DNA of 64,000 nt from Endomicrobiia bacterium (GTDB lineage Bacteria; Elusimicrobiota; Endomicrobiia; DTEH01). The translations under genes were made by a program, and so were the position numbers. The notes under the pieces are model-generated. The model did not search any database. It was not told the DNA's origin and saw only the letters and a list, made by a program, of their open reading frames with translations. Position 1 is the first letter of the stretch. Every line of letters starts with the position of its first letter. The stretch covers positions 190,382 to 254,381 of the forward strand of contig JBCNUU010000002.1 of NCBI GenBank assembly GCA_039630545.1, read 5' to 3'. This document shows, one piece after another, positions 13,373 through 64,000 of the stretch.

Positions 13373-14788
13373 ATGAAAAAAAATAAATACAAATATGTTG
13401 TTTTAAATTTAATAGTTTTTCTATGTTTGTTTAGTTGCGGAAAAAAAACAAAAGAAGTTTCTGGTAAAAAGACTATAAACATATGGATAATGCCTAACAG
13501 TCCAAAACCAGTGATAGATTTAGAGGATGTTCTTAGTGAATTTAAAAAAGAAAATCCAGATATAGAGATAGTGATTACTGGAATTGATTGGGGAGCTGCG
13601 TGGAGTAAAATAACTGTAGCAGCAACAAGTGGTGTGGCTCCTGATATCTGTCAGCTTGGCACTACATGGGTTGGAACAATTGCTTCTATGGGAGCTTTGT
13701 TGCCTTTAAATGAGTATATAGATGAAATAGGAGGACCAAAAGCATTTTTGGAAGCCTCCTGGAATACTTCAGGTATAGAAGGTTCTGGAGTAGTGGTTTC
13801 TGTTCCATGGTTTGTGGATGTAAGGGGAATATATTATAGAAAAGATATATTTGAAAAACTAGGATTGACAAAAAAAGATCTGGATAGTTGGGAATCTTTT
13901 GAAGCAACTCTTAAGAAAATAAAAGATGCAAAAGTAGTTTCTGATAAAGAAGGAAATATTTATATAGGTAAAGAAGCAGAAAATATACTTAAAAAAGATC
14001 CTTCTTGTAAAATAGTAGAACCTTTAGGTATTCCGGGAAAAAATGATTGGAATGTGATTCATAATTTTGTTCCATGGATATGGTCTGCTGGAGGTGATTT
14101 GTTGTCCAAGGATAGAACAACAGCAATATTTAATACTCCTCAGGCAATGAAAGGAATTTTATTTTATACAGGTCTTGTAAGAAAAGGTTTAGTTTCTACT
14201 AAAACCTTAGAGTTAAATACAGCACAAGTTTCCACCAACTTTGTAAATGGTGATTATGCAATGTATTTTGACACATCACATATGGTTAAGTATATGAGTA
14301 TTCCTCAAAGTGAAGGAGGATTTGCTGAAGGTGTTGCTTCTAAAAATTATGATATTGCTTTGTTCCCAAAAGGTCCTGCAGGAAGATATCACTTCTTTGG
14401 TGGAAGTAACTTAGCAATTTTTAAATATACAAAATACCCAAAAGAAGCCTGGAAAGTTGTTGCTTATCTTTGTTCTAAAGAAGCTCAGATTAAGTATTCC
14501 CAAAAAACAGGTTTTATGCCTGCAAGAAAAGATGCTTTTGATGATCCTTACTTTGATAAAGATCCAAAAAGAAAAATATTTAAAGAAGCTACAAAATATG
14601 GTAAATCTTATCCTTGTATTCCATCATGGGGTCCTATTGAACCAATTCTTACAAGAAGATTAGGAATTCTATGGGATTATGTTGCTGGAGTTTATGGAGA
14701 ATGCACTGATGATATAATAAAGCAACAAGTTGATATGGCTGTTCAAGAAGTAAATTCTGTTCTTAAAACTACAATAAGCAAACAGTAA
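13373..14788 (+). CDS. Carbohydrate ABC transporter substrate-binding lipoprotein (CUT1 type)
   Basis: Lipobox LFSC, APDICQLGTTWV, VPWFVDVR..YYRKD, GGSNLAIF; GGGAGG RBS. Confidence 0.93.
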   Translation: MKKNKYKYVVLNLIVFLCLFSCGKKTKEVSGKKTINIWIMPNSPKPVIDLEDVLSEFKKENPDIEIVITGIDWGAAWSKITVAATSGVAPDICQLGTTWVGTIASMGALLPLNEYIDEIGGPKAFLEASWNTSGIEGSGVVVSVPWFVDVRGIYYRKDIFEKLGLTKKDLDSWESFEATLKKIKDAKVVSDKEGNIYIGKEAENILKKDPSCKIVEPLGIPGKNDWNVIHNFVPWIWSAGGDLLSKDRTTAIFNTPQAMKGILFYTGLVRKGLVSTKTLELNTAQVSTNFVNGDYAMYFDTSHMVKYMSIPQSEGGFAEGVASKNYDIALFPKGPAGRYHFFGGSNLAIFKYTKYPKEAWKVVAYLCSKEAQIKYSQKTGFMPARKDAFDDPYFDKDPKRKIFKEATKYGKSYPCIPSWGPIEPILTRRLGILWDYVAGVYGECTDDIIKQQVDMAVQEVNSVLKTTISKQ

Positions 14789-14817
14789 TTTTAACAAAGA
14801 AAGGAGTTCTATAAATT

Positions 14818-15951
14818 ATGAAAGATGTAGTAGAATTTGTTACTGTTATAGTTCCTATAAAAAATTCTGAGAGGACTTTAATTAAACACTTAGAATCTAT
14901 TGAAAATGTTGACTATCCTAGAGATAAATTTGAGGTAATATATGCAGATGGTGGAAGTAAAGACAGAACTTTAGAAATTTTAAAAGATTGGAAAAACAAA
15001 AGATTACCTCAAATTATAATAATAGAACTTAACAATTGTAAATCCCCTGGAGAAGCAAGAAATAAAGCTTTAGAAATAGCAAAAGGTAAATACATACTAT
15101 TTACTGACGCGGATTGCGTAGTAAAAAAAGATTGGATAAAACAGATAATTTCTCCATTTGAAAAAGATGAAAAAATTGGCATAGTAGGAGGAGAAATCCA
15201 TACTCTTACAGTTGAAGACGGAAACGATATAGAAAAATACCTGGAGTTTATTAAATTTTTAAGTGTGAATGGAAGATGTAATGTGAGACAGGAAGGATAT
15301 TTTCCAGATATTAAAAAATATCTACCTCATGAAGTGAATGGAAATATTCACAGTAGTTTCTTTGCCACAGCAAATCTAGCTGTAAAAAAAGAAGCATTGT
15401 TAAAAATAGGTAATAAATTCTGGGACGAGATAACGGGTGAAGATGTGGATTTTAATATAAGAATAAATAAAGAAGGTTACAAACTATATTATCTTCCTTC
15501 AGCTATAGTTTATCATATTCACAGAGCAAATTTGACACAGTTTAGAAAACAACTATATGGTTATGGTTATGGTCATCCTCTTCTTATTAAAAAACATGCA
15601 AAGCAGGTTCTGGAAATTTGTATTAATTTGAAAGGGAAATACATTTATCTACCCATACCGTTTTTCATAAAGGGGAATATTTATTTAGGTTCTTTTCATT
15701 TTATACATATATTTTTGGTTCTTACAATTTTAAGTTTAATTTTTAAATGGAGTGTTCTTTCTACGATAATATTTGCATTCCTTACTTTATTATTTAAATA
15801 TATTTATTTTGCTCCGCTTTTAAAGCTAAAACCATTAAGTAAATTTTTTAAGTGGTGTAAAATAAAATATCTTTCCAATTTGTCTTTCATATTAGGAGGT
15901 ATAAAAGGTTCATTTGTTTTTGGTGCTATAGACTTAGAAGACAGCTTTTAA
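14818..15951 (+). CDS. GT2 family glycosyltransferase with C-terminal TM helices
   Basis: VTVIVPIKN, ADGGSKD, ARNKAL, FTDADC (DxD), GEDVDF. Confidence 0.9.
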   Translation: MKDVVEFVTVIVPIKNSERTLIKHLESIENVDYPRDKFEVIYADGGSKDRTLEILKDWKNKRLPQIIIIELNNCKSPGEARNKALEIAKGKYILFTDADCVVKKDWIKQIISPFEKDEKIGIVGGEIHTLTVEDGNDIEKYLEFIKFLSVNGRCNVRQEGYFPDIKKYLPHEVNGNIHSSFFATANLAVKKEALLKIGNKFWDEITGEDVDFNIRINKEGYKLYYLPSAIVYHIHRANLTQFRKQLYGYGYGHPLLIKKHAKQVLEICINLKGKYIYLPIPFFIKGNIYLGSFHFIHIFLVLTILSLIFKWSVLSTIIFAFLTLLFKYIYFAPLLKLKPLSKFFKWCKIKYLSNLSFILGGIKGSFVFGAIDLEDSF

Positions 15952-15983
15952 ACTTCTAATGCTAAAAGAAAGGGACTATAGTT

Positions 15984-18344
15984 ATGAAAATAAAAAAGAA
16001 AAAAGACAAAGATTTTTATTTTGACAACGAAAATAAAGAATTTATTATTAATAACCCTCAAACACCAACCCCATGGCTTAATTATTTAGGTATAGATGAG
16101 TATTGTGCTATGATTTCTAATAATGCTGGTGGATATAGTTTTTATAAATCGCCAAAAAGTTATAGAATTTTAAGATACAGGTATAACAACATTACAATGG
16201 ATCGTCCTGGTAGATACATTTACATTAAAGAAAAAAAAGATATATGGTCGACATCTTGGCAGCCAATAAAATCAGACTTAAGAAAATATAGATACACAAC
16301 CATTCATGGCTTAAGTTATACAAAAATAATATGCGAACATAATTTTATAAAGTCAGAAGTTTTATATTTTGTTCCTCTCGGTGAGAATTTAGAATTATGG
16401 GTTTTGACTTTAGAAAATCTATCAAATAAGTTAAGAACTTTAGATATATTTTCATATGCGGAGTTTTGTTTGTTTGATGCAATGGGTGATCTTACTGATC
16501 TTCAATATATTCAAAATGTTGCCAGGACCAAAATAAATAAAGAAGGAATAATTGAACATTATTGTTTGTTTGCTGGGGGTGAAATAAAAAATGCTTATGC
16601 TTTTACTACAGAAAAATTCTTAGGATACGAAACAGACAGAGAAAAGTTTATAGGTTACCACAATGATGAATCTTCTCCATTAGCAGTTATATCAGGAAAA
16701 TGTAGCAATTCTTTGATTTCCGGTGGCAATCCTTGTGCTTGTTATCATTTAAGAGTTTCTTTGAATAAAAAAGAAGCTAAAAAAATTGTTTTTGCTGTAG
16801 GAGTTGGTTCTGCAGATGTGGAAGGAAAAAGATATAAAGAGAAATATTCAAATATTAAAAATGTAGAAGAAGAGTTTAAAAAACTTAAAAACTACTGGGA
16901 AAGTGTTCTTGGTAAATTACAGGTAAAAACTCCCGATAAGAATTTTGACACGGTTGTAAATATATGGTTGCCTTACCAATGTCATACTACTTTTAAATGG
17001 TCAAGATCTGCTTCTTACTATGAAACAGGTACTCATAGAGATGGTTTAGGTTATAGAGACAGCAATCAAGATGTTTTTTCTGTAATTCATGCAGAATCTC
17101 AAAGAGTAAGAAAAAGAATTCTTGATTTAGCCTCTGCTGTGTATAAAGAAGGATATGCATGTCATACATTTCAGCCAATAACCAATACAGGTACAGGAGG
17201 AACAGATTATTCCGATGATCATTTGTGGTTGGTTTTATCTACTACTGCTTATATAAAAGAAACTGGTGATTTTAAAATTTTAGAAGAAGAAGTCGGATAT
17301 TTTGATGGTGGTAAAGGAAGCTTGTTTGAACATCTTGAGAGAGTGTTGCAATATGGATTAAAGATGAGAGGGAAACACGGATTATCTTTAGCTTTAAGAG
17401 CGGACTGGAATGATTGTTTAAATATGAAAGAAGGGGGAGAAAGTGTCTGGACTACAGAACTTCTTTATAAAGCATTAAAAGAGTTCGTTGAATTGTGTGA
17501 GTATTTGGGTAAAAAAGATTTAGTTGCTACTTATAGTAACCATATGAAAGAAGTAAAAGAAGCTTTTGACAAATATTGTTGGGATGGGGAATGGTATCTT
17601 TGTGCTTATACAAATGAAGGAAGAAAAATAGGAACTAAAAACGAGAAATACTGCAAAATTTATTTAAACACAAATACCTGGGCTGTTATAAGTGGTATAG
17701 GTGATGAAGACAAAAATAAAAAAGCACTAGAAAGTGTTAATAAATATCTTTTCACAAAATATGGTTTGAAGTTATTTTCTCCATGTTATCAAGAATTTGA
17801 TAAAGATGTTGGTGCTATGAGTTCTTTTCCTGCTGGTTTAAAAGAAAATGGAAGTATTTTTTGTCATGCTAATACTTGGGCGATAATAAGTGAATGTATG
17901 CTCGGAAATTCTGAAGTAAGTTATAAATATTTTGATGCTTTAAATCCAATTCATAGATTAAAGAATATTAATATTCATAAAGTAGAACCATATGTTTACT
18001 GTCAAATGATTGCTTCAGATGAGCATCCAGAGTTTGGTCTTGGAAGAAACTCCTGGCTTACAGGAACCGCATCATGGATGTATGTTGCTGCTACTCAATA
18101 TATTCTTGGTATAGTTCCTACATATGAAGGATTATTGATAAAGCCATGTATTCCTTTAAAATGGAAAAAAATAAAAGTTAAAAGAGAATTTAGAGGATGT
18201 GTGTTTCACATAGAGATTGAAAGGGTTGCTAATAATAACGAAATAAAAGAAATTTTTGTAAATGATAGAAAAATAAATTCAAATATTATAAAAATTGACA
18301 AAGATTACAATTTTTATAATGTAAAAGTTGTATTAGGTAAGTAA
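15984..18344 (+). CDS. GH94 glycoside phosphorylase (cellobiose/cellodextrin/chitobiose phosphorylase family)
   Basis: TPTPWLNYLG, RYRYN...DRPGRYIY, GLGYRDSNQD, ADWNDCLN, KENGSIFCH, WLTGTASW. Confidence 0.93.
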   Translation: MKIKKKKDKDFYFDNENKEFIINNPQTPTPWLNYLGIDEYCAMISNNAGGYSFYKSPKSYRILRYRYNNITMDRPGRYIYIKEKKDIWSTSWQPIKSDLRKYRYTTIHGLSYTKIICEHNFIKSEVLYFVPLGENLELWVLTLENLSNKLRTLDIFSYAEFCLFDAMGDLTDLQYIQNVARTKINKEGIIEHYCLFAGGEIKNAYAFTTEKFLGYETDREKFIGYHNDESSPLAVISGKCSNSLISGGNPCACYHLRVSLNKKEAKKIVFAVGVGSADVEGKRYKEKYSNIKNVEEEFKKLKNYWESVLGKLQVKTPDKNFDTVVNIWLPYQCHTTFKWSRSASYYETGTHRDGLGYRDSNQDVFSVIHAESQRVRKRILDLASAVYKEGYACHTFQPITNTGTGGTDYSDDHLWLVLSTTAYIKETGDFKILEEEVGYFDGGKGSLFEHLERVLQYGLKMRGKHGLSLALRADWNDCLNMKEGGESVWTTELLYKALKEFVELCEYLGKKDLVATYSNHMKEVKEAFDKYCWDGEWYLCAYTNEGRKIGTKNEKYCKIYLNTNTWAVISGIGDEDKNKKALESVNKYLFTKYGLKLFSPCYQEFDKDVGAMSSFPAGLKENGSIFCHANTWAIISECMLGNSEVSYKYFDALNPIHRLKNINIHKVEPYVYCQMIASDEHPEFGLGRNSWLTGTASWMYVAATQYILGIVPTYEGLLIKPCIPLKWKKIKVKREFRGCVFHIEIERVANNNEIKEIFVNDRKINSNIIKIDKDYNFYNVKVVLGK

Positions 18345-18346
18345 AA

Positions 18347-19276
18347 ATGAAAATAAAATCTACTGTTGAAGAAATAAAACAGAAAAGTTATGCATATATG
18401 TTTATCTTGCCAATGGTGCTTGGAATGCTTATCATACATTTTATACCTATGATAATAGGTATAATAATGAGTTTTTTAGATTTAAATCAATATACATTAG
18501 CCCAATATTTATCAGCTCCATTTGTGGGTTTAAAAAATTACTTTGATGTTCTTTTTAATCCTAAAAGTACTATAAGAATAGGTTTATTACAAGCAGTTAG
18601 AAACACTATCATTTATACGATTGGAGTTACTTTAGGTACTTTAACAATAGGTATGATAGTAGCTTTGATGTTAAACAAAAACTTCATAGGGAGAAGATTA
18701 ATAAGGACATTATTTTTGTTTCCATGGATAGTTCCTACTTATGTTACTGGGCTTCTTTGGGCATTTATATGGAATCATGAAATAGGCGTAGTTAACTATG
18801 TTTTAACAAAGGTGTTACGTATTGTTGAAAAACCACCGTTTTGGCTTATGGGCCCAAATACTTTGTGGGCTATTATAGTACCAACTGTATGGAGATTCTG
18901 GCCATTTTCAATGCTTATGCTTTTAGCAGGACTTCAGACAATTCCAGATGAGTTATATGAATCGGCTTCAATTGATGGGGCAAATGAGTGGCAGAAGTTT
19001 TGGTATATTACCCTTCCTTCACTTAAACCTGTTTGGTCTACTTTGCTTCTTGTGAGTATTATTACAAATGTTTATTCTTTTAATATCGTAATAATGATGT
19101 TTGGACATGGTGCTGGTTTTCCTGGAGAGTGGGGAGATCTTCTTATGACGAATATATTTAGAAATTCATTTCAATTATGGCAATACAGTAAAGGAGCTGC
19201 TGCTTCTATTGTTTTGATGATAATGATGATAGGAGTAGTAGCTATCTGGTATAAATTATTCAGGGAGAAATGGTAA
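18347..19276 (+). CDS. Carbohydrate ABC transporter permease (MalF-like)
   Basis: EAA motif LYESASIDGA..WQKFWYITLP; multiple TM segments. Confidence 0.94.
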   Translation: MKIKSTVEEIKQKSYAYMFILPMVLGMLIIHFIPMIIGIIMSFLDLNQYTLAQYLSAPFVGLKNYFDVLFNPKSTIRIGLLQAVRNTIIYTIGVTLGTLTIGMIVALMLNKNFIGRRLIRTLFLFPWIVPTYVTGLLWAFIWNHEIGVVNYVLTKVLRIVEKPPFWLMGPNTLWAIIVPTVWRFWPFSMLMLLAGLQTIPDELYESASIDGANEWQKFWYITLPSLKPVWSTLLLVSIITNVYSFNIVIMMFGHGAGFPGEWGDLLMTNIFRNSFQLWQYSKGAAASIVLMIMMIGVVAIWYKLFREKW

Positions 19277-20118
19277 TGAAAAAGTTGTCCCAGAGTTTTC
19301 TTTTTTATTTTCTTCTTTTGACAATTTTGATAGGAACATTGTTTCCAATATATTGGATGATTATAAATTCTTTTAAAGATAACACTGAAATTTTAACAGG
19401 AAAAAGTTTGTTTTGGCCATCAAGATGGAGGATAGAAAATTACAGAGATATGTGGAAAAATATTAATTTTGGTTTGTATTTAAGAAACAGTTTTATAGTT
19501 TGTGGTAGTACTATGATAATAGCAATGGTTTTAGCAACATTGGCAGCATATAGCTTAAGTAGATTTAAATTTCCTGGGAAAAGAATTATAAATGATTCAA
19601 TTCTTGCTACACAGATGATTCCAGGGATAATGTTTTTGATACCAATTTATTTAATGTTTGTTAGATTTCATTCGTTAACTAATATTCAACTAATAGGGAC
19701 ATTTCCAGGTTTAATATTTGTTTATTCTACATTTTTTGTTCCGTTTAGTGTGTGGATTTTACAGGGATTTTTTGCAGCAATACCATATGAGATAGAAGAA
19801 GCTGCTTTGATAGACGGATGCAGTAGACTTCAAATTTTTTTAAAGATAGTACTACCTTTAGCAGCACCAGGAATTACTGCTACAGGGATTTATATCTTTC
19901 TTACTGCTTGGGACGAACTTATGTTTGCTTGGGTTTTAACCCAAGCAGACACAATTACCATTCCTGTAGGAATAAGGCTCTTTGTAGGCAATTACCAGAA
20001 CAGATACGATCTCATGATGGCAGCTTCTACAGTAGCAACCTTACCTGTTATTATATTATTTTTCGCAATGCAAAAACACATTATAAAAGGTCTTACTGCA
20101 GGTGCTGTAAAAGGATAA
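19270..20118 (+). CDS. Carbohydrate ABC transporter permease (MalG-like)
   Basis: EEAALIDGCSRLQIF..I.LPL, C-terminal GLTAGAVKG. The start could also be ATG 19276. Confidence 0.94.
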   Translation: MVMKKLSQSFLFYFLLLTILIGTLFPIYWMIINSFKDNTEILTGKSLFWPSRWRIENYRDMWKNINFGLYLRNSFIVCGSTMIIAMVLATLAAYSLSRFKFPGKRIINDSILATQMIPGIMFLIPIYLMFVRFHSLTNIQLIGTFPGLIFVYSTFFVPFSVWILQGFFAAIPYEIEEAALIDGCSRLQIFLKIVLPLAAPGITATGIYIFLTAWDELMFAWVLTQADTITIPVGIRLFVGNYQNRYDLMMAASTVATLPVIILFFAMQKHIIKGLTAGAVKG

Positions 20119-20140: not shown

Positions 20141-21556
20141 ATGAAAGATTTTTTGTTTTTTCTACTAAGACTTTTTGTTTACTTACTTGTAGCGTTATCT
20201 ATCTGGTGGATTATAAAATATCCTCAATATGTAATTATCATATTTTTGATTTTTCATATAGCAGTTTTACTTGCTTATTTAGCGAATGACAAAGAAATTC
20301 AGATTTTTGTTGTACTGTCTTCTATCTTTATAGCAGGTTCTATTGTTCTTCTTCATAATTTTCAACCTAAATATAATGTTTTAATAGATAAGATAATAAT
20401 AATCATTGAAACTGCATTTATAATAGGCAGTTTTCTTTTTTTACAGAAAAAAAGTTGGGCATTGGAAGTTTACTCTACAAATTTTATAGAGAAGATAGAA
20501 AATTTTGAAAGAGAAATTTCTGAAATATCCGATAATATAAAAGAGATACAGAATAAGATTTCTAATATTAATGAGATAAAAAATAACTTTAAAATTTTAG
20601 AAGAAATGATCACAACTTTAAGTTCAGTATCTTCTATTTCAGTAATTAAAAATTATGTCGTTAATCTAATTCACAAACTATTACCTGGTGTACATATAAA
20701 TTTGTATCTTTCTTCTAAGGAAGTTCCTGAAAATACGTTAGAAGAAGAAATTGTAAAATATATTAATACAACTAATAAATATTTTTTTTCAAACGATGTT
20801 AGCTTTCTTCTAAATAAGTTTAAAACAAACTATTTATATTTTACTTCTTCTGAAATAAAAGCAATATTAGGATTTCCTATTAAAATTTACACTGGAAATG
20901 TTGAATCAACTGGATATTTTATATTTATTTCTCCAAATAAAATTACAGAAGAAAATTTAAGATTATTATCAATCTTTTCGAGTTATTTAGGAATAACTAT
21001 ATCTAATATAAAATTAATAGAATATACTCAAAATCTAGCAATAACAGATACACTTACAGGTCTTTATGTACATAAATATTTTAAAGAGTTATTGGAAGAA
21101 GAAATTAATAGAACTAAATATTATAACAGAATTTTCAGTTTAGCGATGTTTGATATAGATAATTTTAAACAAATAAATGACACCTATGGTCACAATGTGG
21201 GAGATATGGTGTTATTAAAATTTGCAGAAGTGTTAAGAAAAAGGTTAAGAGAAGTTGATAAAATTTTTAGATATGGAGGCGATGAATTTGCTATAATCTT
21301 TCCTGATACTAATGTTTCTAATGCATTAAAGATATGTGAAGAAATAAGAAATATAGTATTAAATGAAGTTATCGTTATAGGAAATGTTTTAGAAAGTAAT
21401 ATATCTTCTTTAAACAGGATTAAATTTACAGTTTCTGGTGGTGTAATGGAGTATGACAAAGAATATGACTTAGAAACATTTATAAATATGGTAGATAAAC
21501 TTCTTTACAAATCAAAAACTTCTGGAAAAAATAAAATAACATGCCCAAAGAAATAA
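20141..21556 (+). CDS. Membrane-anchored diguanylate cyclase (TM - coiled coil - GAF-like - GGDEF)
   Basis: AITDTLTGL, DIDNFKQINDTYGH, RYGGDEF with the RxxD I-site (REVD). Confidence 0.92.
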   Translation: MKDFLFFLLRLFVYLLVALSIWWIIKYPQYVIIIFLIFHIAVLLAYLANDKEIQIFVVLSSIFIAGSIVLLHNFQPKYNVLIDKIIIIIETAFIIGSFLFLQKKSWALEVYSTNFIEKIENFEREISEISDNIKEIQNKISNINEIKNNFKILEEMITTLSSVSSISVIKNYVVNLIHKLLPGVHINLYLSSKEVPENTLEEEIVKYINTTNKYFFSNDVSFLLNKFKTNYLYFTSSEIKAILGFPIKIYTGNVESTGYFIFISPNKITEENLRLLSIFSSYLGITISNIKLIEYTQNLAITDTLTGLYVHKYFKELLEEEINRTKYYNRIFSLAMFDIDNFKQINDTYGHNVGDMVLLKFAEVLRKRLREVDKIFRYGGDEFAIIFPDTNVSNALKICEEIRNIVLNEVIVIGNVLESNISSLNRIKFTVSGGVMEYDKEYDLETFINMVDKLLYKSKTSGKNKITCPKK

Positions 21557-22846: not shown

Positions 22847-22875
22847 TTGACATGCTAATTTTTTATTTATATAAT
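22847..22875 (+). promoter_or_regulatory. Consensus sigma70 promoter for the GH9 block
   Basis: TTGACA (22847-22852), 17-bp spacer, TATAAT (22870-22875): a perfect consensus. Confidence 0.85.
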
Positions 22876-22878
22876 TAT

Positions 22879-22895
22879 TAATACAGGTAATAACA
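22879..22895 (+). promoter_or_regulatory. Candidate operator (motif copy 2), TAATACA-GGT-AATAACA, over the predicted transcription start
   Basis: Starts 4 nt after the -10 box; shared with three other intergenic sites. Confidence 0.6.
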
Positions 22896-22921
22896 AGTTT
22901 AAATAATGGAGAAAAATAAAA

Positions 22922-32822: not shown

Positions 32823-32839
32823 TATAACAGGATAATACA
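32823..32839 (+). promoter_or_regulatory. Candidate operator (motif copy 3), TATAACA-GGA-TAATACA
   Basis: Upstream of the GH9 at 32863; same 10-bp-period direct repeat. Confidence 0.55.
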
Positions 32840-32862
32840 ACTAAATTATCTAAGGAGGAAAT

Positions 32863-42551: not shown

Positions 42552-42554
42552 CAA

Positions 42555-45701: not shown

Positions 45702-45711
45702 GGAGGAAAAA

Positions 45712-47841: not shown

Positions 47842-47876
47842 ATAAATTATTTTTTTAACAAAAGGAGATTAAAAAA

Positions 47877-49271: not shown

Positions 49272-49294
49272 GTTTAAGGAGGTGGTTTTAGAAG

Positions 49295-50824: not shown

Positions 50825-50841
50825 AAAGGAAATTTCTAAAT

Positions 50842-52857: not shown

Positions 52858-52875
52858 GGAGGAAAAAAATAATCT

Positions 52876-54000: not shown

Positions 54001-54004
54001 TTTT

Positions 54005-54856: not shown

Positions 54857-54861
54857 CAATT

Positions 54862-56865
54862 ATGAAAAAAATAAAGTGGGGAATAATAGGTACAGGAAGC
54901 ATTGCTAAAAAATTTGCTTTTGATTTAAAATTTTCTCAGTTAGGGGAACTTTATGCAATAGCAAGCAGAGATATAAAAAAAGCTCAAGAGTTTTCCAAAG
55001 AGTTTTTATGCGAGAAATTTTATGGAAGTTATGACGGATTATTGAAAGATGAAGATGTTGAAGTTGTTTATATATCTTTGCCTCATGTATACCATGCAGA
55101 GTGGACAATAAAATCTGCGAGAGCAGGTAAACACATACTTTGTGAAAAGCCTCTTACTGTAAATTACGCAGAAGCAGAAGCGGTAATTTATGAAGTAGCT
55201 AAACACAAAGTTTTTTTAATGGAAGCTTTTATGTATAGGTGTCATCCCCAAATTAGAAAATTGATAGAACTTTTAAATGCAAAAAACAGGGTAATAGGAG
55301 ATGTAAAAATTATAGAAGCATCATTTGGTTTTAAAGGTTGGTTTGATCCTGACGGAAGGCTTTTTAACCATTCATTAGCAGGAGGAGGAATTTTAGATGT
55401 TGGATGCTACCCAGTTTCAATAGCAAGACTAATAGCAGGAGTAGCTAACAATAAACTATTTGATGAACCGAAAGAGGTTATAGGTGTTGGAAAAATAGGT
55501 TCTACAAATGTTGATGAATATGCCTTTGGACTTTTAAAGTTTGAAAATGATATTATAGCTAAAATATCCTGTAGTATTACATTTTGGCAAGAAAATTCAG
55601 TAAAAATTTTTGGGACAGAAGGAAGCATAACACTTAAAAATCCGTGGCTTGCCGGATTAGAGGGAAAAATTCCATCCGTAATTGTTGTACAAAAAGAAAA
55701 CAACACAGAAGAAATAAAAATAGACACACATCTTCCACTTTACACTTTAGAAGCAGATATAGTTAATAGAAGTATTTTAGAAAATAAAACTCAACCAGAT
55801 TATCCAGCTATGAGCTGGCAGGATAGTTTAGGTAATATGAAAACATTAGATAAATGGAGGAAAGCAATAGGGTTAGAATATGATTTTGAAAAACCAACAG
55901 TATATATTTCTACTGTGGATAAAGAACCTTTGAAAAGATATGAAGATATTAAAATGGAGTATTTAAAAATCCCTGGTTTAGAAAAACCAGTTTCAAGATT
56001 AATTCTGGGTGCTGACGTTCACATAGAACTTCCATATGCTACAGTAATGTTTGATGAATTTTACAGGTTGGGAGGAAATTGTTTTGACACAGCACATATC
56101 TACTATGAAGGCAAAAGTGAAAGAGTGTTAGGACAATGGATTAAGAATAGAAATTTAAGAGAAGAAATTGTAATTTTAGATAAAGGTGCTCATACTCCAT
56201 GGTGTGATCCTCAAAATCTAACAAAGCAATTATTAGAAAGCCTTGAAAGATTACAGGTGGATTACATAGATATATACTTACTACACAGAGATAATCTTGA
56301 AATTCCAGTTGGAGAGTTTATAGAAGTGCTAAACGAACACAAAAAACTTGGAAGAATAAAAATTTTTGGATGTTCAAACTGGACCATACAGAGAATAGAA
56401 GAAGCAAACAATTACGCAAGAAAAAGAAATTTAGAAGGTTTTTCAGTTGTAAGCAATAACTTTTCGTTAGCAAAAATGGTTTCTGCTGTGTGGGAAGGTT
56501 GTATAAGTTCTTCTAATAAAGAGGATATAGAGTGGTTTAAGAAAACACAGATTCCTTTGTTTTCATGGTCTTCTCAAGCAAGGGGTTTTTTTAGTGGAAA
56601 AGCTTCACCTGATAATTTTGAAGATAAAGAACTTGTAAGATGCTGGTATAGCAAAGAAAATTTTGAAAGATTAGAAAGAGCCAGAATTCTTGCATCAAAA
56701 AAGAATATAAAACCTATAAACATAGCTTTAGCATATGTATTATCTCAAAAATTTCCAACGGCTGCCTTAATTGGGCCAAGAAATTTATTTGAGTTAAAAG
56801 ATTGTATGGTAGCATTTGATATAAAACTTACTGAAGAAGAGATCAGGTATTTAGAAGAAGGATAA
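54862..56865 (+). CDS. Fusion of a Gfo/Idh/MocA oxidoreductase and an aldo/keto reductase
   Basis: N-half WGIIGTGSIA, HILCEKP, EAFMYR.HP, GGGILDVGCY; C-half FDTAHIY, SLERLQVDYIDIYLLHRD, GCSNW. Confidence 0.9.
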   Translation: MKKIKWGIIGTGSIAKKFAFDLKFSQLGELYAIASRDIKKAQEFSKEFLCEKFYGSYDGLLKDEDVEVVYISLPHVYHAEWTIKSARAGKHILCEKPLTVNYAEAEAVIYEVAKHKVFLMEAFMYRCHPQIRKLIELLNAKNRVIGDVKIIEASFGFKGWFDPDGRLFNHSLAGGGILDVGCYPVSIARLIAGVANNKLFDEPKEVIGVGKIGSTNVDEYAFGLLKFENDIIAKISCSITFWQENSVKIFGTEGSITLKNPWLAGLEGKIPSVIVVQKENNTEEIKIDTHLPLYTLEADIVNRSILENKTQPDYPAMSWQDSLGNMKTLDKWRKAIGLEYDFEKPTVYISTVDKEPLKRYEDIKMEYLKIPGLEKPVSRLILGADVHIELPYATVMFDEFYRLGGNCFDTAHIYYEGKSERVLGQWIKNRNLREEIVILDKGAHTPWCDPQNLTKQLLESLERLQVDYIDIYLLHRDNLEIPVGEFIEVLNEHKKLGRIKIFGCSNWTIQRIEEANNYARKRNLEGFSVVSNNFSLAKMVSAVWEGCISSSNKEDIEWFKKTQIPLFSWSSQARGFFSGKASPDNFEDKELVRCWYSKENFERLERARILASKKNIKPINIALAYVLSQKFPTAALIGPRNLFELKDCMVAFDIKLTEEEIRYLEEG

Positions 56866-56893
56866 ATTTCTTTATATAAAAAGGACATTAAAA

Positions 56894-58087
56894 ATGTTAC
56901 AAATAAAACAAGAAAAAATAATAGAAGAAACAACATCCACAGAAATAAGACTTCGTGGTGTAAACTTAGGTGGGTGGTTGATGATGGAAGGATATATTCT
57001 TGGTGGAAGAAATATTACAGAAACAGAGTTTAAAAATAAATTTAAAAAAATAAATGGTAAGAAAGCTCTAATTGATTTTGAAAATTCATTTAGAAAAAAT
57101 TTTATTAACGAACATGATATAAAATATATAAAAAATTTAAACTTTAACTGTATAAGAGTTCCATTTCATTGGAAGATAGCAGATAAAGATATATATTGGT
57201 TAAAAAGGATAATAGAATGGTGTAAAAAACATAAAATTTATTGTATTCTGGATATGCATAGTGTTCCTGGTTCACAAAATGGCGATTGGCACTCAGATCC
57301 TCCTGAGCCATCTAAAAGTTTGTTCTGGTTTAATAAAAAATTTCACAGCATCTACTATAGCTTATGGGATAAAATTTCAAAAATGTTTAAAGACGAAGAA
57401 ATAATTGCAGGTTATGATATAATGAATGAGCCGGTGATAAGGAAGAAAAATTGGGCAAAGATATTAGCCGAAGTTTATAATAATGTAATTAAAGTAATAA
57501 GAAAAAATTCTGACAGACACATTATATTTGTGGAAGGCAACATGTGGGCATCTATGTGCGATTTTTTTAAATATTTAAAACATAAAGAAAATATAGCAAT
57601 AAGCATACATTTTTATCATCCAGTAGATTATACATTTAATTTAAATCATGATCTTAAATATCCAGATGCCAATTTTAATAAAGATAAACTCTATAAGATG
57701 TTAAAAGAGTATAAAGAAATCTCCATGAAACATAAAGTTCCTATATATGTAGGAGAGTTTGGTATTAATTTAAGGTGTGACAATGGGTGTTCTGGAGAGA
57801 AGGAGTATTTAAGGGACCTAATATCCGCTTTTGAAAAATTTGACTTCCACTGGACAATATGGACCTATAAAACCATATATATTCATGTTCAACCTACTGG
57901 ACTTTTGGTATATAATAAGAATCCGGATTTTATATCTCGCCAGGAGAATGATTTTGGATGGGAAAGATATATTTTAAGCTGGAAAAAATATTCTTCAGAG
58001 ATAAAATCTTCCTGGCTTTCAAGAAATTTTTCTTATGGAGTTTTAAAAATTCTAAAAGATAAATTTTTTGTTTTAAAAACCTCTTGA
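56894..58087 (+). CDS. GH5 glycoside hydrolase without a signal peptide
   Basis: LRGVNLGGWLMMEGY, RVPFHW, LDMHSVPGSQN, MNEP (acid/base), HFY, VGEFG (nucleophile), WTYK. Confidence 0.9.
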   Translation: MLQIKQEKIIEETTSTEIRLRGVNLGGWLMMEGYILGGRNITETEFKNKFKKINGKKALIDFENSFRKNFINEHDIKYIKNLNFNCIRVPFHWKIADKDIYWLKRIIEWCKKHKIYCILDMHSVPGSQNGDWHSDPPEPSKSLFWFNKKFHSIYYSLWDKISKMFKDEEIIAGYDIMNEPVIRKKNWAKILAEVYNNVIKVIRKNSDRHIIFVEGNMWASMCDFFKYLKHKENIAISIHFYHPVDYTFNLNHDLKYPDANFNKDKLYKMLKEYKEISMKHKVPIYVGEFGINLRCDNGCSGEKEYLRDLISAFEKFDFHWTIWTYKTIYIHVQPTGLLVYNKNPDFISRQENDFGWERYILSWKKYSSEIKSSWLSRNFSYGVLKILKDKFFVLKTS

Positions 58088-58129
58088 CAACTATATTTTG
58101 TTTTTGTATATCTAATACAGGTTAACACA
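58084..58129 (+). promoter_or_regulatory. Promoter (-35 TTGACA) plus candidate operator (motif copy 4) TAATACA-GGT-TAACACA at 58113-58129
   Basis: TTGACA 58084-58089, imperfect -10 TATATC after 17 bp. The motif ends on the A of the regulator's ATG. Confidence 0.6.
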
Positions 58130-59259
58130 TGATGAAAGATTCTGTTTTACCAAAGTATAAAACAATAGCTAAAATATTATCACAAAAAATTCAAAAAGGA
58201 GAATATAAGAAAAATACTTTTCTACCTTCAGAAGCTGAACTCTCAAAAATGTTTAAAGTAAGCAGAGTCACAATCAGACAGGCACTCAACATTCTTATAC
58301 ATGAGAATCTCATAAAGCCAATCGCAGGAGTAGGAAGTGTCGTGATCAATGAAACACCTTCAAAATTTTCTGAAATTTCTGTTGATAAAACAAAAAGTAT
58401 ATATTTTGTGTTAATTCTGTCTAAAAGTGTAAAGTGGGGAATAGAAAATCCATTTTATGCAGAGATAATCAGTGGAGCAGAACAGAGAGTAAGAGAAAAT
58501 GGATATCATCTTTTGTTTACTTTATATGAAGATATAAGAAGAGCTTCTGACCTTTCAGATTTGATGATTAAAAAACACATTAATGGTTTTTTATTGGTAG
58601 GTGATATGGATGAAAAATTTATAAATCTAGTCAAAAAATCAGGTCTTCCTTCAGTAATTATTAACAACCCTATAGGTGAAAAATATGAACTGCCGACCAT
58701 TATAAATGATGATTTTAGAGGTGGATTTGAAGCTACAAAATTTCTTTACAATACAGGTTGTAGAAAGATTGCATGTATTAAAGGACCTTCTTCATCTCTA
58801 AGTTGTGAAGAAAGATATAGAGGTTATATATCTGCATTAAAAAATTTTGGTTTAGAAGTTACTTCAAATTTAGTGGTTGAAGGAAATCTTGAGTTTGAAA
58901 GTGGTTATGATGCTGTTAAAAAAATTTTTAGCTCAAAAATTTTGCCTGATGGTATATTTGCGATTAACGACACTATGGCAATAGGAGCTTTAAAGTTTTT
59001 AATAGAAAAAGGTGTAGAGATTCCTAAAGAAATAAGCATTATAGGTTTTGACAATATAGCTCAAAGCGCTCAAGTGGTCCCTTCGCTTACCACTGTAAAT
59101 GTAGAAAGAAAAGAGATGGGTTATTTAGCTACAGGAAAACTTATTGAGTTCATAGAAAATAAAACTCAGTATTTTCCTATAAGGGTAATTCTACCCTGCA
59201 GAATCATAGAAAGAGAGACTACAAGAAAAATAGAAAAAAATTCTAACACTAAATTTTAA
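58129..59259 (+). CDS. GntR-HTH plus LacI-type sugar-binding domain regulator (AraR-like)
   Basis: PKY..I, LPSEAELSKMFKVSRVTIRQAL..L (GntR wHTH), followed by a periplasmic-binding-fold domain with SIIGFDN and LTTV. Confidence 0.93.
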   Translation: MMKDSVLPKYKTIAKILSQKIQKGEYKKNTFLPSEAELSKMFKVSRVTIRQALNILIHENLIKPIAGVGSVVINETPSKFSEISVDKTKSIYFVLILSKSVKWGIENPFYAEIISGAEQRVRENGYHLLFTLYEDIRRASDLSDLMIKKHINGFLLVGDMDEKFINLVKKSGLPSVIINNPIGEKYELPTIINDDFRGGFEATKFLYNTGCRKIACIKGPSSSLSCEERYRGYISALKNFGLEVTSNLVVEGNLEFESGYDAVKKIFSSKILPDGIFAINDTMAIGALKFLIEKGVEIPKEISIIGFDNIAQSAQVVPSLTTVNVERKEMGYLATGKLIEFIENKTQYFPIRVILPCRIIERETTRKIEKNSNTKF

Positions 59260-59272
59260 AGGAGCAAATCGT

Positions 59273-62200
59273 ATGAAAAATAAAAAATTCCTAATATTTT
59301 TTATATCTCTTTTCATGATATTACAGGTATTAACAACTATACCATCTTTTTGTGACTTATATAAAGATAGGTTCTTAGAGCTATATAATTGTATAAAAAC
59401 TAATGGTTGTTTGTCTCCTGAAGGTATTCCTTATCATTCAAGAGAAAAAAGAATTGTAGAAGCTACAGACTACGGTCACTGCTCTACATCAGAAGGAATT
59501 TCTTTTTTGATATGGTTAGAGGCAATGTATGACTATATTACCAACAATTCAAACTGGAGTAATTTTTCAAGAGCCTGGGACATATGTGAACGGTATTATA
59601 TTCCACCTTCTTCAGAACAACCAAATTTTGCCTATAATTCTTCAAAACCAGCTTCAGTTGTAGATGAACATGATTCACCAACAGCATATCCTTCCAGTGT
59701 AGATACAAACGCTCCTGTAGGAAACGACCCAATTTGGAGTTCAGTTACATCAGCTACTGGAAGGCAGATACCTTATCTTCTTCATTGGTACTTAGATGTA
59801 GACGATTGGTTGGGATTTGGTCAAGCATTTAATATAGGAATTTCAGGAAAAGATGGAAGAAGAATAGTAAAAACAAACACATTCCAAAGAGGCCCTAACG
59901 AATCTACCTGGGAAACAATTCATCATCCTTCTTTTGATAAAAAACCAGATTACAACACATTTTATGTTCCTTTATTTGTTCAATCAGATTCAGCTCAATG
60001 GAGGTATACTTCAGCTCCTGATGCAGAAGCAAGGATAGCTCAAGCTATGTGGTGGGCAGAGTTGTGGGCTGCACAAAAAGGTGTAAACATTAACAACTAT
60101 ATAACAAAAACTCGTAATTTAGGTCACTGGATGAGATATTGTTTATTTGACAAGTATTTTAGAAGAATAGGACAAGCTGGTTCAGCAGGAAGTGGTTATA
60201 ACAGCTGTCATTATTTAATAAGTTGGTACATTGCTTGGGGCGGTCCTGTTCAACAATCTGAAAGATGGGGTTTTCTTATTGGTTGTCATTCTGCACATAC
60301 TGGATATCAAAATCCACTGGGTGCTTATTATTGGGCACAAAAAGGAGTTCCTGATTGGGAAAAAAGTTTAAGAACACAGCTTGCTTTAGCAAAATGGCTT
60401 CAAGTTCCGAAGGGAAATTTAGGGGAAGGTGCATTTGGAGGAGGTGTATGTAATGACTATCCAGATGATGATGTAGAATACACAGCATCTGATGCACCTA
60501 CTTTTAACCCACCTACTTACACAGATGGTCAGATGCCTTTAAGATACACTCACCATCCAGTATACTGGGATCCAGGTAGCAACACCTGGTGTGGTTGGCA
60601 GTACTGGTTTTCAGAACGTCTTGCACAGTTTTATTTTATACTTCCCTCTACAAGTCCATATCTATCTGACACATATTCTATTTTAAAAAACTGGATGGAT
60701 TTGTGGGCAGTTCCTAATTTCAAAGTTAAAATTAACGGTCAGTGGTATACAGCAGATACTCTTACAACATCACAATTAAGAAACACAGATCTCATTGAAG
60801 ATGTAAACATTCCTATAAGTTTTGTAAATTGGGATTGGTTAAATCCTCAAAATAACAATCCCTTAGATGCACCTGGTCCTCGTCAATCTTCTACTCGGTG
60901 GCAAGGTTGGAATGGAAAGGGTCCTGGAGACCCAAATTATGGAGCCAAAGTAGAGGCATGGGGGCACGATGTAGGGCTTATGGGAGCATTTGTAAAATGC
61001 TTAATTTTTTATAAACAAGGACTTCAAAAACACAACCACCAATCCAGATTTGAACCAGATTTTTATAAATACTTAGCAAAAACAATACTTGATGTAATGT
61101 GGAAAAATTTCAAAACAGACCTTGGTATTTCTGCACCAGAAATAAGGACAGATTATGTAAGATTTACTGATACCACCATATCCACTGTATATGTTCCTCA
61201 ATCCAAACGGTTTCCCAACATAGGCTTGGTAAACCAGGGAAATCGTGCCTTTAAAGATACAAGACCTGATTATGGAGAACCAATTCCGCAAGATTACAAA
61301 TTCACATATCACAGAACCTGGCAACAAGCGGCGTTTGCTTTAGCTTTAGGGTATTATTCTTTATATGAAAACAGAGATAATCCTCCATCAATAACCCTGA
61401 TTTCACCATCCACATCTACTATATTAACTGGAAGTGTAGAAGTTCGTGCAAATATTACAGATGATATTGAACTACGAAAAGTTGAACTTTATGTGAACAA
61501 TAACTTAAAATATGAAACAATACTTACTACTAATACTTATTTACTTAACTGGATATGGAATACTTCTGAACTTTTAGATTCAACACATACATTAAAAATT
61601 GTTGCTGTAGATAGCAGTTCACAAACATTTACTTATCAGGCAGTATTTAGAACAGATAATAATACTCCTCCAACAGTCTCAATCGTTAATCCTTTGAATA
61701 ACTCAAATGTTTCCGGAGTTGTAAACATAGAAATCCAAGCACAAGATCAGGCTCCGGGATATGTAGAAAGGGTGGTTTTAAGCATCACTAACCCTTCTCA
61801 AAGTTATACTTTGCAGTATACATTTTTACAACCACCCTACACCTATAGTTGGGATACTACATCTCTTTCAACAGGAAGTTATATAATTCGTGCAATCGCC
61901 TATGACAATATGCAAGAATTTTCGCAAGCTCAAATAAATATAAGGATATTTAGAATAGAAGGAGATAATCCTCCTCAAATCACTATAATTTCACCACAAA
62001 ATAATGCTACATACTATCTTACAGACACTATAAATCTTCACTACCAAGCAACTGATGATAATCTTCTTAGTGTGTTAGAAATATTTATTGACAATATTTT
62101 GTTTAGCAGCACAACACTAAACTTATCCTCTTATCAAACTACAACTTCTATTTACGCAAACAATCTATCCACTGGAACTCACTGGTTAGTTGCGGAAGAG

Positions 62201-62559
62201 TAAAAGACAACTCTTCACAACAAAACTCAGCTTCAGTAATGATTAGAATTCTTTCATCTCAATTCTATCCTACAACCAACAATCTGATGGAGGTTCAACT
62301 CCTTATAGATGATATAGATGAAGACTATACTTTAATTTCTGATTACTTGATACTTACTCCTAACAATGACGGTATAAACGACAAAATTGTTTTTTCTGAA
62401 AATATTCCTTATGAGATATTTACAAAAGATGGACAAAAAATTTTCTCTGATATATCTAATAATTGGGATGGTAAGGATTACTATAACTTAATAGTCCAGA
62501 ATGGTCTTTATTTGCTAAAAACTGACACAAAAATTTATTTTGTATTAGTAGCAAGATAA
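59273..62559 (+). CDS. GH48 cellobiohydrolase-type cellulase with three Big domains and a C-terminal sorting-like domain; frameshift near 62195
   Basis: GIPYHS, VEATDYGH.STSE, HW.LDVD, NTFQRG..ESTWETI, WRYTSAPDAEAR, HYLISWYIAWGG, YHRTWQQ. The frame of ORF 62239..62559 is open back to the break (RVKDNSSQQNSASVMIRI). Confidence 0.9.
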
Positions 62560-62653
62560 ATTTTTTTGGGAACAAAATAATTTTTGAAAGTGTCTGATTA
62601 TAAAAAAAAAGGAGGATATTTTATAGGATTTTATAGGGAAATAATGAAAATTT

Positions 62654-64000
62654 ATGAAAATAAAAATTAATCTATTATTTCTTGCAGTTATATCTAATTT
62701 AATATCCTTTTCATTTTCACAAACACCCGTACAGGTTCATGGACAACTGAGAGTTTCTGGTAGGTATCTTGTTGACCGAAATGGAGTTCCTGTGGTTTTA
62801 AGAGGTATGAGTTTGTTTTGGAGCCAGTGGGGAAGCAAATATTGGAATTCCTCTGTTATTGACTGGGTAGCAACTGATTGGAAGGTAAATGTAATTAGAG
62901 CAGCTATGGGGATAGAAGATGGTGGATACTTAACATACCCTACAACTCACAAAAATTTAGTAAAAACAGTAGTTCAAGCATGCATAGACAGAGGCATTTA
63001 TGTAATAATTGACTGGCATGACCACAACGCACCAGCACACCAGAGTCAAGCAATAGAGTTTTTTAGGGAGATGGCACAAACTTATGGCAACACTCCAAAT
63101 GTTATATACGAAATCTTTAACGAACCAGATCTGGATGATAACTGGAACGGAATAAAAAGTTATGCTCAAGCAGTAATTCAAGCTATCCGACAATATGACC
63201 CAGACAATGTAATTTTAGTAGGAACACCAAACTGGTGCCAGTATGTGGATGTAGCAGCGGGTTCTCCACTTACAGGGGTAAGTAATGTGATGTATGTGTT
63301 ACATTTCTATGCAGCAACACATGGATCAAATTACAGACACAAAGCACAGACAGCAATAAACGCAGGACTTCCTCTTTTTGTAAGTGAATTTGGGACCTGT
63401 GAGTATACAGGTAATGGTAGATATGATTTTAATGAAACAGACGCATGGATTAATTTTTTAGAACAATACAAAATCTCCTGGGTCAACTGGTCATTAAATG
63501 ATAAACCTGAATCATGTTCTGCTTTAGTTCCAGGAGCTTCGGCATCTGGTGGTTGGCTTGAATCTCAACTTACTCAATCAGGAAGATATATAAGAAACAA
63601 AATAAGATCCTACAATCAAAGCACAGGAGGTATTGTAGCTTATCTTACAACTTGTTCTTCAGGAAGCATTGTTTGGGCAAGCACTAATGTTTCTGTTTAT
63701 GTTTCAGCAGGAAACAGTATTTCAAAAGTTGAGTTTTATGTAGATGGTACACTAAAATATACAGACAATTCTTCTCCATATAGCTGGGTGTGGGATACAA
63801 CTCAATACTCAGATGGCTGGCATAATTTAAAAGTAGTTGCCTATGACACACAAAACAATACATCTCAAGTTCAAACAAGTGTAGTAGTATATAACTCTAC
63901 TTTGCCTTCTATTAATATTACTAATCCACAAAATGGTTCTATTATTTATGGAAATTCAGCGATGGTATATGTGGAAGCAAATAAAGGATATGAGGTAACA
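62654..64000 (+). CDS. Secreted GH5 endoglucanase (subfamily 2-like) with Big domain(s), 3'-truncated; absent from the ORF track
   Basis: Hand translation: MKIKINLLFLAVISNLISFSFSQTPVQVHGQLRVSG...LRGMSLFWSQW...IRAAMG...YVIIDWH...YEIFNEP...LHFYAATH...FVSEFG...WVNWS, then KVEFYVDGTLKYTDNSSPYSWVWDTT. No stop before the window end. Confidence 0.92.
   Translation, partial: MKIKINLLFLAVISNLISFSFSQTPVQVHGQLRVSGRYLVDRNGVPVVLRGMSLFWSQWGSKYWNSSVIDWVATDWKVNVIRAAMGIEDGGYLTYPTTHKNLVKTVVQACIDRGIYVIIDWHDHNAPAHQSQAIEFFREMAQTYGNTPNVIYEIFNEPDLDDNWNGIKSYAQAVIQAIRQYDPDNVILVGTPNWCQYVDVAAGSPLTGVSNVMYVLHFYAATHGSNYRHKAQTAINAGLPLFVSEFGTCEYTGNGRYDFNETDAWINFLEQYKISWVNWSLNDKPESCSALVPGASASGGWLESQLTQSGRYIRNKIRSYNQSTGGIVAYLTTCSSGSIVWASTNVSVYVSAGNSISKVEFYVDGTLKYTDNSSPYSWVWDTTQYSDGWHNLKVVAYDTQNNTSQVQTSVVVYNSTLPSINITNPQNGSIIYGNSAMVYVEANKGYEVT

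Follow-up and report, generated by a model that had tools for sequence, protein, structure and literature searches.

A probable cellulase regulon of one Elusimicrobiota genus with a predicted T9SS-like export route

Introduction

How might a diderm bacterium carry a large set of cellulases past its outer membrane, and is cellulose what those enzymes degrade? These questions are raised by a 64,000-nucleotide stretch of the genome of an Endomicrobiia bacterium of the phylum Elusimicrobiota (hereafter the window; G000:C12:190382-254381, where G000 denotes the host genome, C-numbers its contigs and G001–G008 related genomes), whose last position is also that of its contig and cuts into the second of two glycoside hydrolase family 5 (GH5) genes. 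Drawing on sequence, structure models and synteny, with function inferred throughout, we propose that the window holds part of a cellulose-degrading regulon of one Elusimicrobiota genus, whose tailed enzymes would be exported by the phylum's own translocon, similar to that of type IX secretion systems (T9SS). We assign this reading a probability of about 70%.

According to the passages of PMC7031533 on this group, Elusimicrobia largely lack cellulase machinery, and hot-spring Elusimicrobia (1.53 Mb, 80% complete) that were ~500-fold enriched on cellulose particles may bind, and not degrade, cellulose. The relevant section of PMC9127263 places the T9SS in the Fibrobacteres–Chlorobi–Bacteroidetes (FCB) superphylum.

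Results

A cellulase set outside cellulosomes and polysaccharide utilization loci

The host genome measures 1.60 Mb, with 95.5% completeness, 0.17% contamination and a GC content of ~29%. A preliminary description made from sequence alone had suggested an Elusimicrobiota host, in agreement with the names of its apparent relatives: Endomicrobia is the name given to close homologues of one core-genome protein, and a GH48 relative is named Elusimicrobiota. It had also proposed that the host bears lipopolysaccharide, which is supported, together with a diderm envelope, by LpxC scoring above cut-off in the genome, whereas the GT9 glycosyltransferase matches it had cited fall below the NCBIfam cut-offs.

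Pfam matches and catalytic motifs bore out five GH9, one GH48 and two GH5 genes between 13373 and 64000, together with a GH94 phosphorylase, ATP-binding cassette (ABC) uptake, xylose genes and two regulators; near-complete co-orientation was likewise found, with 27 of 28 retained open reading frames (ORFs; at least 100 aa, kept as genes) on the + strand. The earlier inventory had passed over a GT2 glycosyltransferase, two GGDEF proteins, a GH52-like protein, a lipoprotein with InlB-type repeats, an SH3 protein, a mutarotase and a Gfo/aldo-keto reductase fusion. Genome-scale searches with positive controls upheld the view that the system is neither cellulosomal nor a polysaccharide utilization locus (PUL): cohesin was found in 0/10 family genomes, dockerin was absent from the window by Pfam and gave one genome match (E 0.16, below cut-off, outside the clusters), and SLH domains gave no match in the whole genome (controls positive in 4). 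The host genome gave no match to PF07980, the one SusD model searched genome-wide, for which the B. thetaiotaomicron control scored above cut-off. No TonB-dependent receptor was detected among window proteins by Pfam, and LPxTG occurred in 0/28 C-termini of the retained window ORFs.

All window genes described here lie on the + strand, except one that is marked as such. The largest enzyme, a GH9 of 1984 aa (22922–28876), comprises Ig domains, CelD_N, the GH9 domain, a module resembling carbohydrate-binding module family 11 (CBM11) and a C-terminal tail. Behind it lie a Cel9G-like GH9-CBM3c with four Big_7 domains and a tail (28906–32481), an untailed 1263-aa GH9 with a CBM11-like module (32863–36654), which is a paralogue of the first (48% identity), and a 757-aa GH9 with a type-B-like tail (36662–38935). 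The fifth GH9 (42555–45701) carries CBM11 and no tail. Further downstream we found a GH5 without signal peptide (56894–58087), whose best structure match is a putative beta-xylosidase, a GH48 with three Big_7 domains and a tail (59273–62559), and a GH5 with signal peptide and Big_7 (62654–64000), which is cut by the contig end and has a tailed orthologue of 1011 aa in G005. N-terminal hydrophobic leaders on the enzymes were judged by eye.

The GH9 DAGD and Glu motifs were present in 5/5 window GH9s and the His motif pattern in 4/5, and the window GH5s carry NEP and EFG motifs. The protein encoded at 28906 aligned with Cel9G over both the catalytic domain and CBM3c (E 1e-103), CBM3c directly following a GH9 domain with DAGD, His and Glu motifs. 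When aligned to solved GH48s, the window GH48 showed TSEG at 72, APDA at 248 and the tunnel tryptophans, residues that we take to have catalytic and tunnel roles.

Two genes are broken in this assembly only: the fifth GH9 (42555/43572) by an in-frame TGA at 43470–43472, and the GH48 by a frameshift near 62195, which detaches its tail as a separate ORF (62239–62559). Neither break occurs in contigs of 3/3 public runs (at most two samples) that contain the GH48 stretch; these are hot-spring metagenomes, all from a single study, with the source sample possibly among them, and no RNA run was listed as containing the stretch. The G002 orthologue of the fifth GH9 is whole (1052 aa), and five GH48 orthologues measure 1084–1101 aa. 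The two breaks are assembly errors or private variants. An alternative genetic code for the in-frame TGA was rejected, as TGA terminates 255/1022 long ORFs and the public contigs read TGG.

C-terminal tails and a putative SprA-like translocon

A hidden Markov model (HMM) of the tail, grown from 17 host C-termini, detected it in 33 host proteins (in-genome search, E<1e-13), always in terminal position and on carriers of up to 6690 aa. In the window it identified the 1984-aa GH9, the GH9-CBM3c, the 757-aa GH9 and the detached GH48 tail ORF. The tail of the 757-aa GH9 matched TIGR04131 (T9SS type B) with 42.1 bits against a cut-off of 35, and TIGR04183 scored above cut-off in five other proteins. 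The tail is kept in 5/5 GH48 orthologues; tailed enzymes stay tailed, and no tail is present in orthologues of the three untailed ones, namely the 1263-aa GH9, the fifth GH9 and a second host GH48. With a structure model of the 757-aa GH9 tail (pLDDT 90.5), T9SS C-terminal domains (CTDs) were retrieved at Foldseek ranks 1, 3 and 4 (E 0.0015–0.003) and at VIA ranks 3–7 (Z 7.3–7.8). The largest candidate cargo with the same tail is the 6690-aa open frame at G000:C34:121050-141122. A hydrolase-specific tail clade, seen in the alignment, was not retained, its support being only 84–89.

A SprA homologue of 1733 aa is encoded on the same contig as the window (C12:74846-80047), with three colinear weak SprA matches and an NCBIfam E of 1.3e-22. 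A single-sequence PDB search with this protein gave 0 matches and a profile was needed; built from 80 relatives, it matched only SprA in the PDB (E 1.2e-50). A model of residues 1–1200 also retrieved SprA (E 1e-50, TM ~0.4; next fold 2e-5), and Atlas neighbours of the protein carry SprA_N. SprA-like matches were found in 177/201 phylum genomes, none above cut-off, and homologues are also named Firestonebacteria.

The host further encodes 20 PorV/PorP-like barrels (in-genome HMM); three host proteins score above the PorV_fam cut-off, and others more weakly. Fourteen of the 20 barrel genes lie directly 3' of a tail gene (random mean 0.49, maximum 4), a count that combines 15 seeds chosen near tail genes (11 paired) with five newly found barrels (3/5 paired). 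In complex modelling, the tail of the 757-aa GH9 and an unpaired barrel, C6:12205, scored 0.69, compared to 0.20 for the best of 3 controls; at least 84% of contacts were shared between runs, the partner had a pLDDT of at least 77, and the contacts fell on conserved tail residues. The mark for this score is reached by 116/157 solved pairs and 2/215 mismatched pairs.

These data indicate that the tail is part of a system found across the phylum, one that has a SprA-like translocon and barrels of its own, and that it was not borrowed together with the enzymes. The C-terminal sorting tag of the preliminary description, called Bacteroidota-like, keeps its T9SS-like character. Judged from its sequences, the system would work like a T9SS, though we stop short of counting it among the canonical ones.

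Candidates for an energy source were seen as well. A FliG-domain protein, MotA and MotB are present in the host; L026:4393-6288 and L028:12028-13542 hold a FliG-domain/TPR protein 3' of a tail gene and a PorV-TPR barrel, with MotA and MotB elsewhere. On contig C6, a TPR protein, ExbB, two ExbD and a PorV-like barrel are found among tailed proteins (L014:16577-19594 and L015:617-3454); this set is colinear in G002 and might energise export or import.

Several observations weigh against the proposed export and uptake route. The SprA homologue reaches 79 bits against a TIGR04189 cut-off of 200 and is 1733 aa long against 2403 aa, and its model covers residues 1–1200 only (pTM 0.59). No Foldseek match below E 0.001 was obtained for the modelled tail, and VIA ranked two Ig-like domains of streptococcal proteases first (Z 9.4–9.6); because these score higher, the tail fold alone is not specific and is suggestive only as evidence for a T9SS. 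Among the glycoside-hydrolase tail genes, 0/10 are directly followed by a barrel gene. The passing complex model may reflect likeness, because PorV-CTD complexes have already been solved, and we read it as indicating likeness, not binding, and as leaving the true carrier unnamed. A dedicated cellulase carrier was looked for and rejected: orthologues of C12:19160 occur in 2/10 and those of C6:12205 in 3/10 family genomes, neither in all four genomes with GH48. GldK and GldM gave no match in the host genome, no control scoring above cut-off either, and the GldL search gave 0/121 above cut-off with no positive control, so canonical T9SS energisation appears to be missing. On the uptake side, the GH94 protein scored 647 vs 628 bits, a near tie with chitobiose phosphorylase, and no outer-membrane cellodextrin channel was identified.

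The tail might instead be a FlgD-like Ig module with another job, such as stability or periplasmic or peptidoglycan tethering, in which case the SprA-like barrel would not export these enzymes. It does match FlgD_ig and generic Ig folds, the Gld motor was not found, PorU (peptidase C25) gave no match in the host with controls silent too, and the hydrolase tail genes lack a downstream barrel. A module of this kind is hard to reconcile with a tail that is always terminal, even on proteins of 6690 aa, with the 14/20 gene pairing, with SprA homology by both sequence and fold, and with a complex model that passes on conserved tail residues; we regard it as improbable.

The locus recurs in part of the host genus

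GH48 was found in 4/401 phylum genomes, all in the host genus (4/8 of the genus), and GH9 in 11/401, with 5/8 in the host genus. A GH94 orthologue occurs in the same four genomes as GH48, and G006 has two weaker GH94s. The first block of the window, from the binding protein to the 757-aa GH9, is colinear in G002 and, for the region compared, in G003, and G005 carries a rearranged subset; in G002 a single 85-kb contig carries both the LacI-xylose run and the GH5-GntR-GH48-GH5 run. A tRNA-Leu(CAG) gene (13177–13260, + strand, ARAGORN) lies directly 5' of the block and in the same position in G003, the G002 block lies 3' of a tRNA-Arg, and in G004, G007 and G008 the tRNA-Leu is followed by unrelated genes. 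Insertion targeted to a tRNA could account for these positions, a reading weakened by the shuffled gene order across the genus.

This recurrence in sister species makes chimerism unlikely. A binning or assembly chimera, with the block derived from a cellulolytic Firmicute or a Goldbacterium, would draw on the two local breaks and the clustered differences near 62193–62303, which point to imperfect assembly, and on a 1983-aa GH9 homologue labelled WOR-3 (P0259). It is contradicted by the same blocks in G002, G003 and G005 with different flanks, by the low contamination, by a codon usage that correlates with the genome (r=0.996; GC3 0.195 vs 0.188), by the SprA homologue on the same contig, and by even read depth and a public-run contig that spans 43200–59379. 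The chimera is already largely refuted, and we give it almost no weight. A recent island was not supported by composition, the block's codon usage being like that elsewhere in the genome. The block is thus native, and in part of the genus it is old; it was either acquired there or has been lost by the other species.

Related gene sets were seen in other genomes. G001 (98% complete) has two tailed GH9s and lacks any match to GH48 or GH94, which makes its set partial. Most of the additional proteins of G002 are tailed; they are GH26-CBM35, GH81, a GH74-like BNR-repeat protein and another GH9-CBM3. A SprA-like protein and two GH9s apparently come from one genome and both GH48 types from another, which suggests near-complete genomes with the whole system.

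Enzyme relationships and likely substrate

The window GH48 shares 78–88% identity with five orthologues, 44% with the second host GH48 and 35–42% with all else among the best 120 matches. A 22-row IQ-TREE phylogeny with midpoint root only separated both Elusimicrobiota GH48s and four unnamed proteins from 13 others (clostridial, actinobacterial, beetle and other; rows taken from the 120 matches) with 100/100 support, and a 47-row FastTree agrees. We claim no donor for this GH48. The preliminary description had called the enzymes and uptake Gram-positive in type; this holds for the Cel9G-like GH9-CBM3c and a CbpB-like binding protein and fits only part of the enzyme set, because the GH48 is not inside the sampled clostridial and actinobacterial set. 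The four unnamed proteins carry CBM64, dockerin, or dockerin and a T9SS tail. One of this sister group, P0013, is a GH48 that bears both a dockerin and a type A T9SS tail, so a tailed GH48 is not unique to the host genus. The 1263-aa and 1984-aa GH9s share only 27–36% identity with proteins outside their own group. P0259, the homologue of the largest window GH9 labelled candidate division WOR-3, may reflect misbinning or transfer.

Beyond the window, a scan of 63/1411 host ORFs near tail genes added three more GH9, the second GH48, two GH8, a GH44, two GH5, a GH10 and a GH16, a partial inventory. This makes eight GH9 loci and two GH48 genes in 1.6 Mb, and the genome's cellulase clusters number at least three, the window included.

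GH48 together with GH9-CBM3c is an established crystalline-cellulose pair. Its presence, the two GH48 genes with their catalytic Glu/Asp motifs and tunnel tryptophans, and the eight GH9 loci count against a cellulose-attached scavenger that is no primary degrader of crystalline cellulose and whose exported enzymes act mainly on hemicellulose, on soluble or amorphous beta-glucans, or on oligomers that a partner (Goldbacteria, for example) releases. Such a life would suit a window with only one CBM3, of the catalytic-helper CBM3c type, and a dominance of CBM11-like modules, as well as xylose genes and xylosidase-like enzymes in the same block; it would also suit the report, in part of PMC7031533, that 15/19 cellulose-sorted Elusimicrobia cells co-occurred with a Goldbacterium. 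We judge the scavenger unlikely, though deserving more weight than the FlgD-like tail.

Uptake, phosphorolysis and a shared operator-like motif

The first block opens with an ABC solute-binding lipoprotein (13373–14788; Pfam), likely for cellodextrins or beta-glucosides. Its best structure matches are 7c63 (E 7e-113) and CbpB (7x0i, E 2e-87), whose ligands we take to be beta-glucosides and cellodextrins. The following genes encode the GT2 glycosyltransferase (14818–15951), the GH94 phosphorylase, likely for cellobiose or cellodextrin (15984–18344), two ABC permeases (18347–20118) and the two GGDEF proteins, with motifs GGDEF and GGEEF (20141–22791), all assigned by Pfam. A MalK-type ABC ATPase is encoded outside the window (G000:C56:39506-40621), so that the earlier claim of ABC uptake in the locus stands for two binding proteins and two permeases and not for the ATPase. 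At a site whose role in phosphorylase specificity we assume, the GH94 has Phe where cellobiose phosphorylase has Tyr and chitobiose phosphorylase Val, and it lacks the insertion of cellobiose phosphorylase; by sequence, its specificity leans toward glucosides. The GT2 is kept between binding protein and GH94 in G002, G003 and G005, and the two motif-intact GGDEF genes are kept in G002 and G003, inside the uptake operon. The GT2 and the putative diguanylate cyclases could tie substrate sensing to adhesion.

A further protein, encoded on C6 (L014:2779-4953) 3' of an operator-like site, joins CBM11 to a 500-aa region ending in Phe and is 82% identical in G002. With an Atlas match to DUF6029 (0.94), it is a lead, and only that, for the outer-membrane cellodextrin channel.

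Four 18-bp sites in the window share an operator-like motif (~ACAWGT-N4-ACAWGT): 13313–13330, 22881–22898, 32825–32842 (kept in G002) and 58115–58132, the last at the start of the GntR-LacI gene and also kept in G002. When a matrix built from them was run against 548 upstream regions, the top eight sites were three seeds and five non-seed sites, and all five non-seed sites adjoin other polysaccharide genes; 7 regions reached at least 14.6 bits compared to 0–1 in five shuffles, the fourth seed region not being among the top rows. Matching sites precede orthologues in G002 and G003. The motif appears to link the window to the host's other cellulase clusters, and its likely binder is a regulator with a GntR DNA-binding domain and a LacI-type sensor (58129–59259; Pfam). 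One site lies 3' of a 12/12 sigma-70 promoter match (22847–22898 with the site, + strand), and another overlaps the GntR-LacI start, which suggests repression and autoregulation. The promoter scan as a whole was near chance (118 vs 105.7), and only the 12/12 site was used.

A separate run is headed by a LacI regulator (41478–42551) behind a LacI-type operator-like palindrome kept in G002 (41462–41475). It continues with the fifth GH9, a GH52-like possible beta-xylosidase (45712–47841, weak match), a second solute-binding lipoprotein with 48% identity to the first (47877–49271), xylulokinase, transketolase, xylose-isomerase-like and mutarotase-like proteins (49295–54856) and the Gfo/Idh/MocA and aldo-keto reductase fusion (54862–56865; Pfam).

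Other features of the window

Between two GH9 genes lies a 63-aa ORF (32577–32768) with two hydrophobic stretches, one signal-like and the other C-terminal, kept in G002 as a 60-aa counterpart in the same place with a near-identical C-terminal half. A lipoprotein with five InlB-B-type repeats (39092–40360; Pfam) and an SH3 and zinc-ribbon protein (40582–41334, - strand; Pfam) separate the first block from the xylose run. Upstream of the block, a lipoprotein at 12136–12765 has no Pfam match, is found in 9/10 family genomes and has a 78% paralogue at G000:C3:463, and V-ATPase subunit D (10075–10683) lies apart from subunit B (C77), the two being adjacent in G008. Rfam at gathering threshold gave 0 matches in the window, missing even the tRNA found by ARAGORN. 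Nothing above cut-off was found for reverse gyrase; an amino-acid formula gives a rough figure of about 64 C for the host.

Discussion

If our reading of a native regulon with T9SS-like export is correct, Sec would carry the leader-bearing enzymes to the periplasm, from which the tailed 1984-aa GH9, GH9-CBM3c, 757-aa GH9 and GH48, and probably the GH5 at 62654, would cross the SprA-like barrel and then be taken up by a PorV/PorP-like barrel. The tail is probably uncleaved, since no PorU was found, with the enzymes held at the surface on Ig stalks. The untailed GH9s (1263 aa and 1048 aa) and the second GH48 would trim oligomers in the periplasm, cellodextrins would be imported by the CbpB-like ABC system with its distant MalK-type ATPase and cleaved by GH94 phosphorolysis, and the LacI-headed run would handle xylosides and xylose. 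The GntR-LacI protein may repress all cellulase clusters through one motif.

Non-PUL cellulases linked to a T9SS are known in Bacteroidota from Cytophaga hutchinsonii and 'Ca. Paraporphyromonas polyenzymogenes' (PMC5831590, as far as its account of that system goes). Like that system, the host is diderm, has neither SusCD PUL nor cellulosome, clusters GH94 with CTD-tailed multimodular GH5 and GH9 enzymes, and is predicted to have both surface and periplasmic enzymes. Unlike it, the host has two GH48 genes where the same account gives no GH6 or GH48, takes up sugars across the inner membrane by an ABC system instead of a GPH symporter, belongs to a phylum outside FCB, and has no detected GldK/L/M or PorU. 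The SprA-like translocon, terminal Ig-like tails and tail-barrel gene pairs resemble the type B CTD and its PorP/SprF shuttles, whereas the host translocon has a smaller size and a score well under the family cut-off, the barrels are nearer PorV/PorQ than PorP, and the Gld motor and sortase went undetected, without positive controls. The portion of PMC12618676 on F. johnsoniae reports that orphan type B cargo share one shuttle, a parallel to the host hydrolase tails without an adjacent barrel.

The non-cellulosomal systems of clostridia (Thermoclostridium CelY/CelZ, Caldicellulosiruptor, and CbpB with cellobiose phosphorylase in C. thermocellum) share with the host GH48 and GH9-CBM3c, cellodextrin ABC uptake, GH94 phosphorolysis and LacI-type control. 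In contrast to these, the host enzymes must cross an outer membrane, there is no SLH and no CBM3a/b tandem, and the GH48 is 35–38% identical, on a separate branch. In the neighbouring phylum Goldbacteria, 'Ca. Cellulosimonas argentiregionis' is described with GH5, 8, 9 and 44, many CBM11 and cellobiose phosphorylase (PMC7031533), much like the host with its GH5/8/9/44, CBM11 and GH94; the main text of that source, as far as it covers this organism, mentions neither GH48 nor a secretion route.

A literature search, with most subscription journals outside its scope, returned no description of GH48 or of a SprA/T9SS-like system in Elusimicrobiota. In the passages covered, PMC11257099 uses neither 'secretion system' nor 'glycoside hydrolase', and PMC12204202, PMC8857248 and PMC12297393 have nothing on such a system. 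The locus is real and not chimeric. It encodes a putative cellulase system, T9SS-like and non-PUL, that combines GH48 with ABC/GH94 uptake, lies in a phylum reported to lack such machinery, and is undescribed in the literature searched. More tentatively, and at rather less than even odds, Elusimicrobiota may hold a Gld-free second branch of the T9SS, with a shortened SprA, many PorV-like carriers and another ion-driven motor (flagellum-free FliG/MotAB or ExbBD), to which one genus would have added two GH48 and the GH9 set, yielding a system for crystalline cellulose at the cell surface, distinct from cellulosomes, PULs and the canonical T9SS alike.

For biomass conversion, the divergent GH48 and GH9 enzymes, which may be thermostable, offer candidates that can be assayed. 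A SprA homologue found across the phylum, with no Gld motor detected, would extend the T9SS beyond FCB and test its power source. Some Elusimicrobiota hold a full cellulase set, which makes the question of whether they bind or degrade cellulose, posed in PMC7031533, directly testable.

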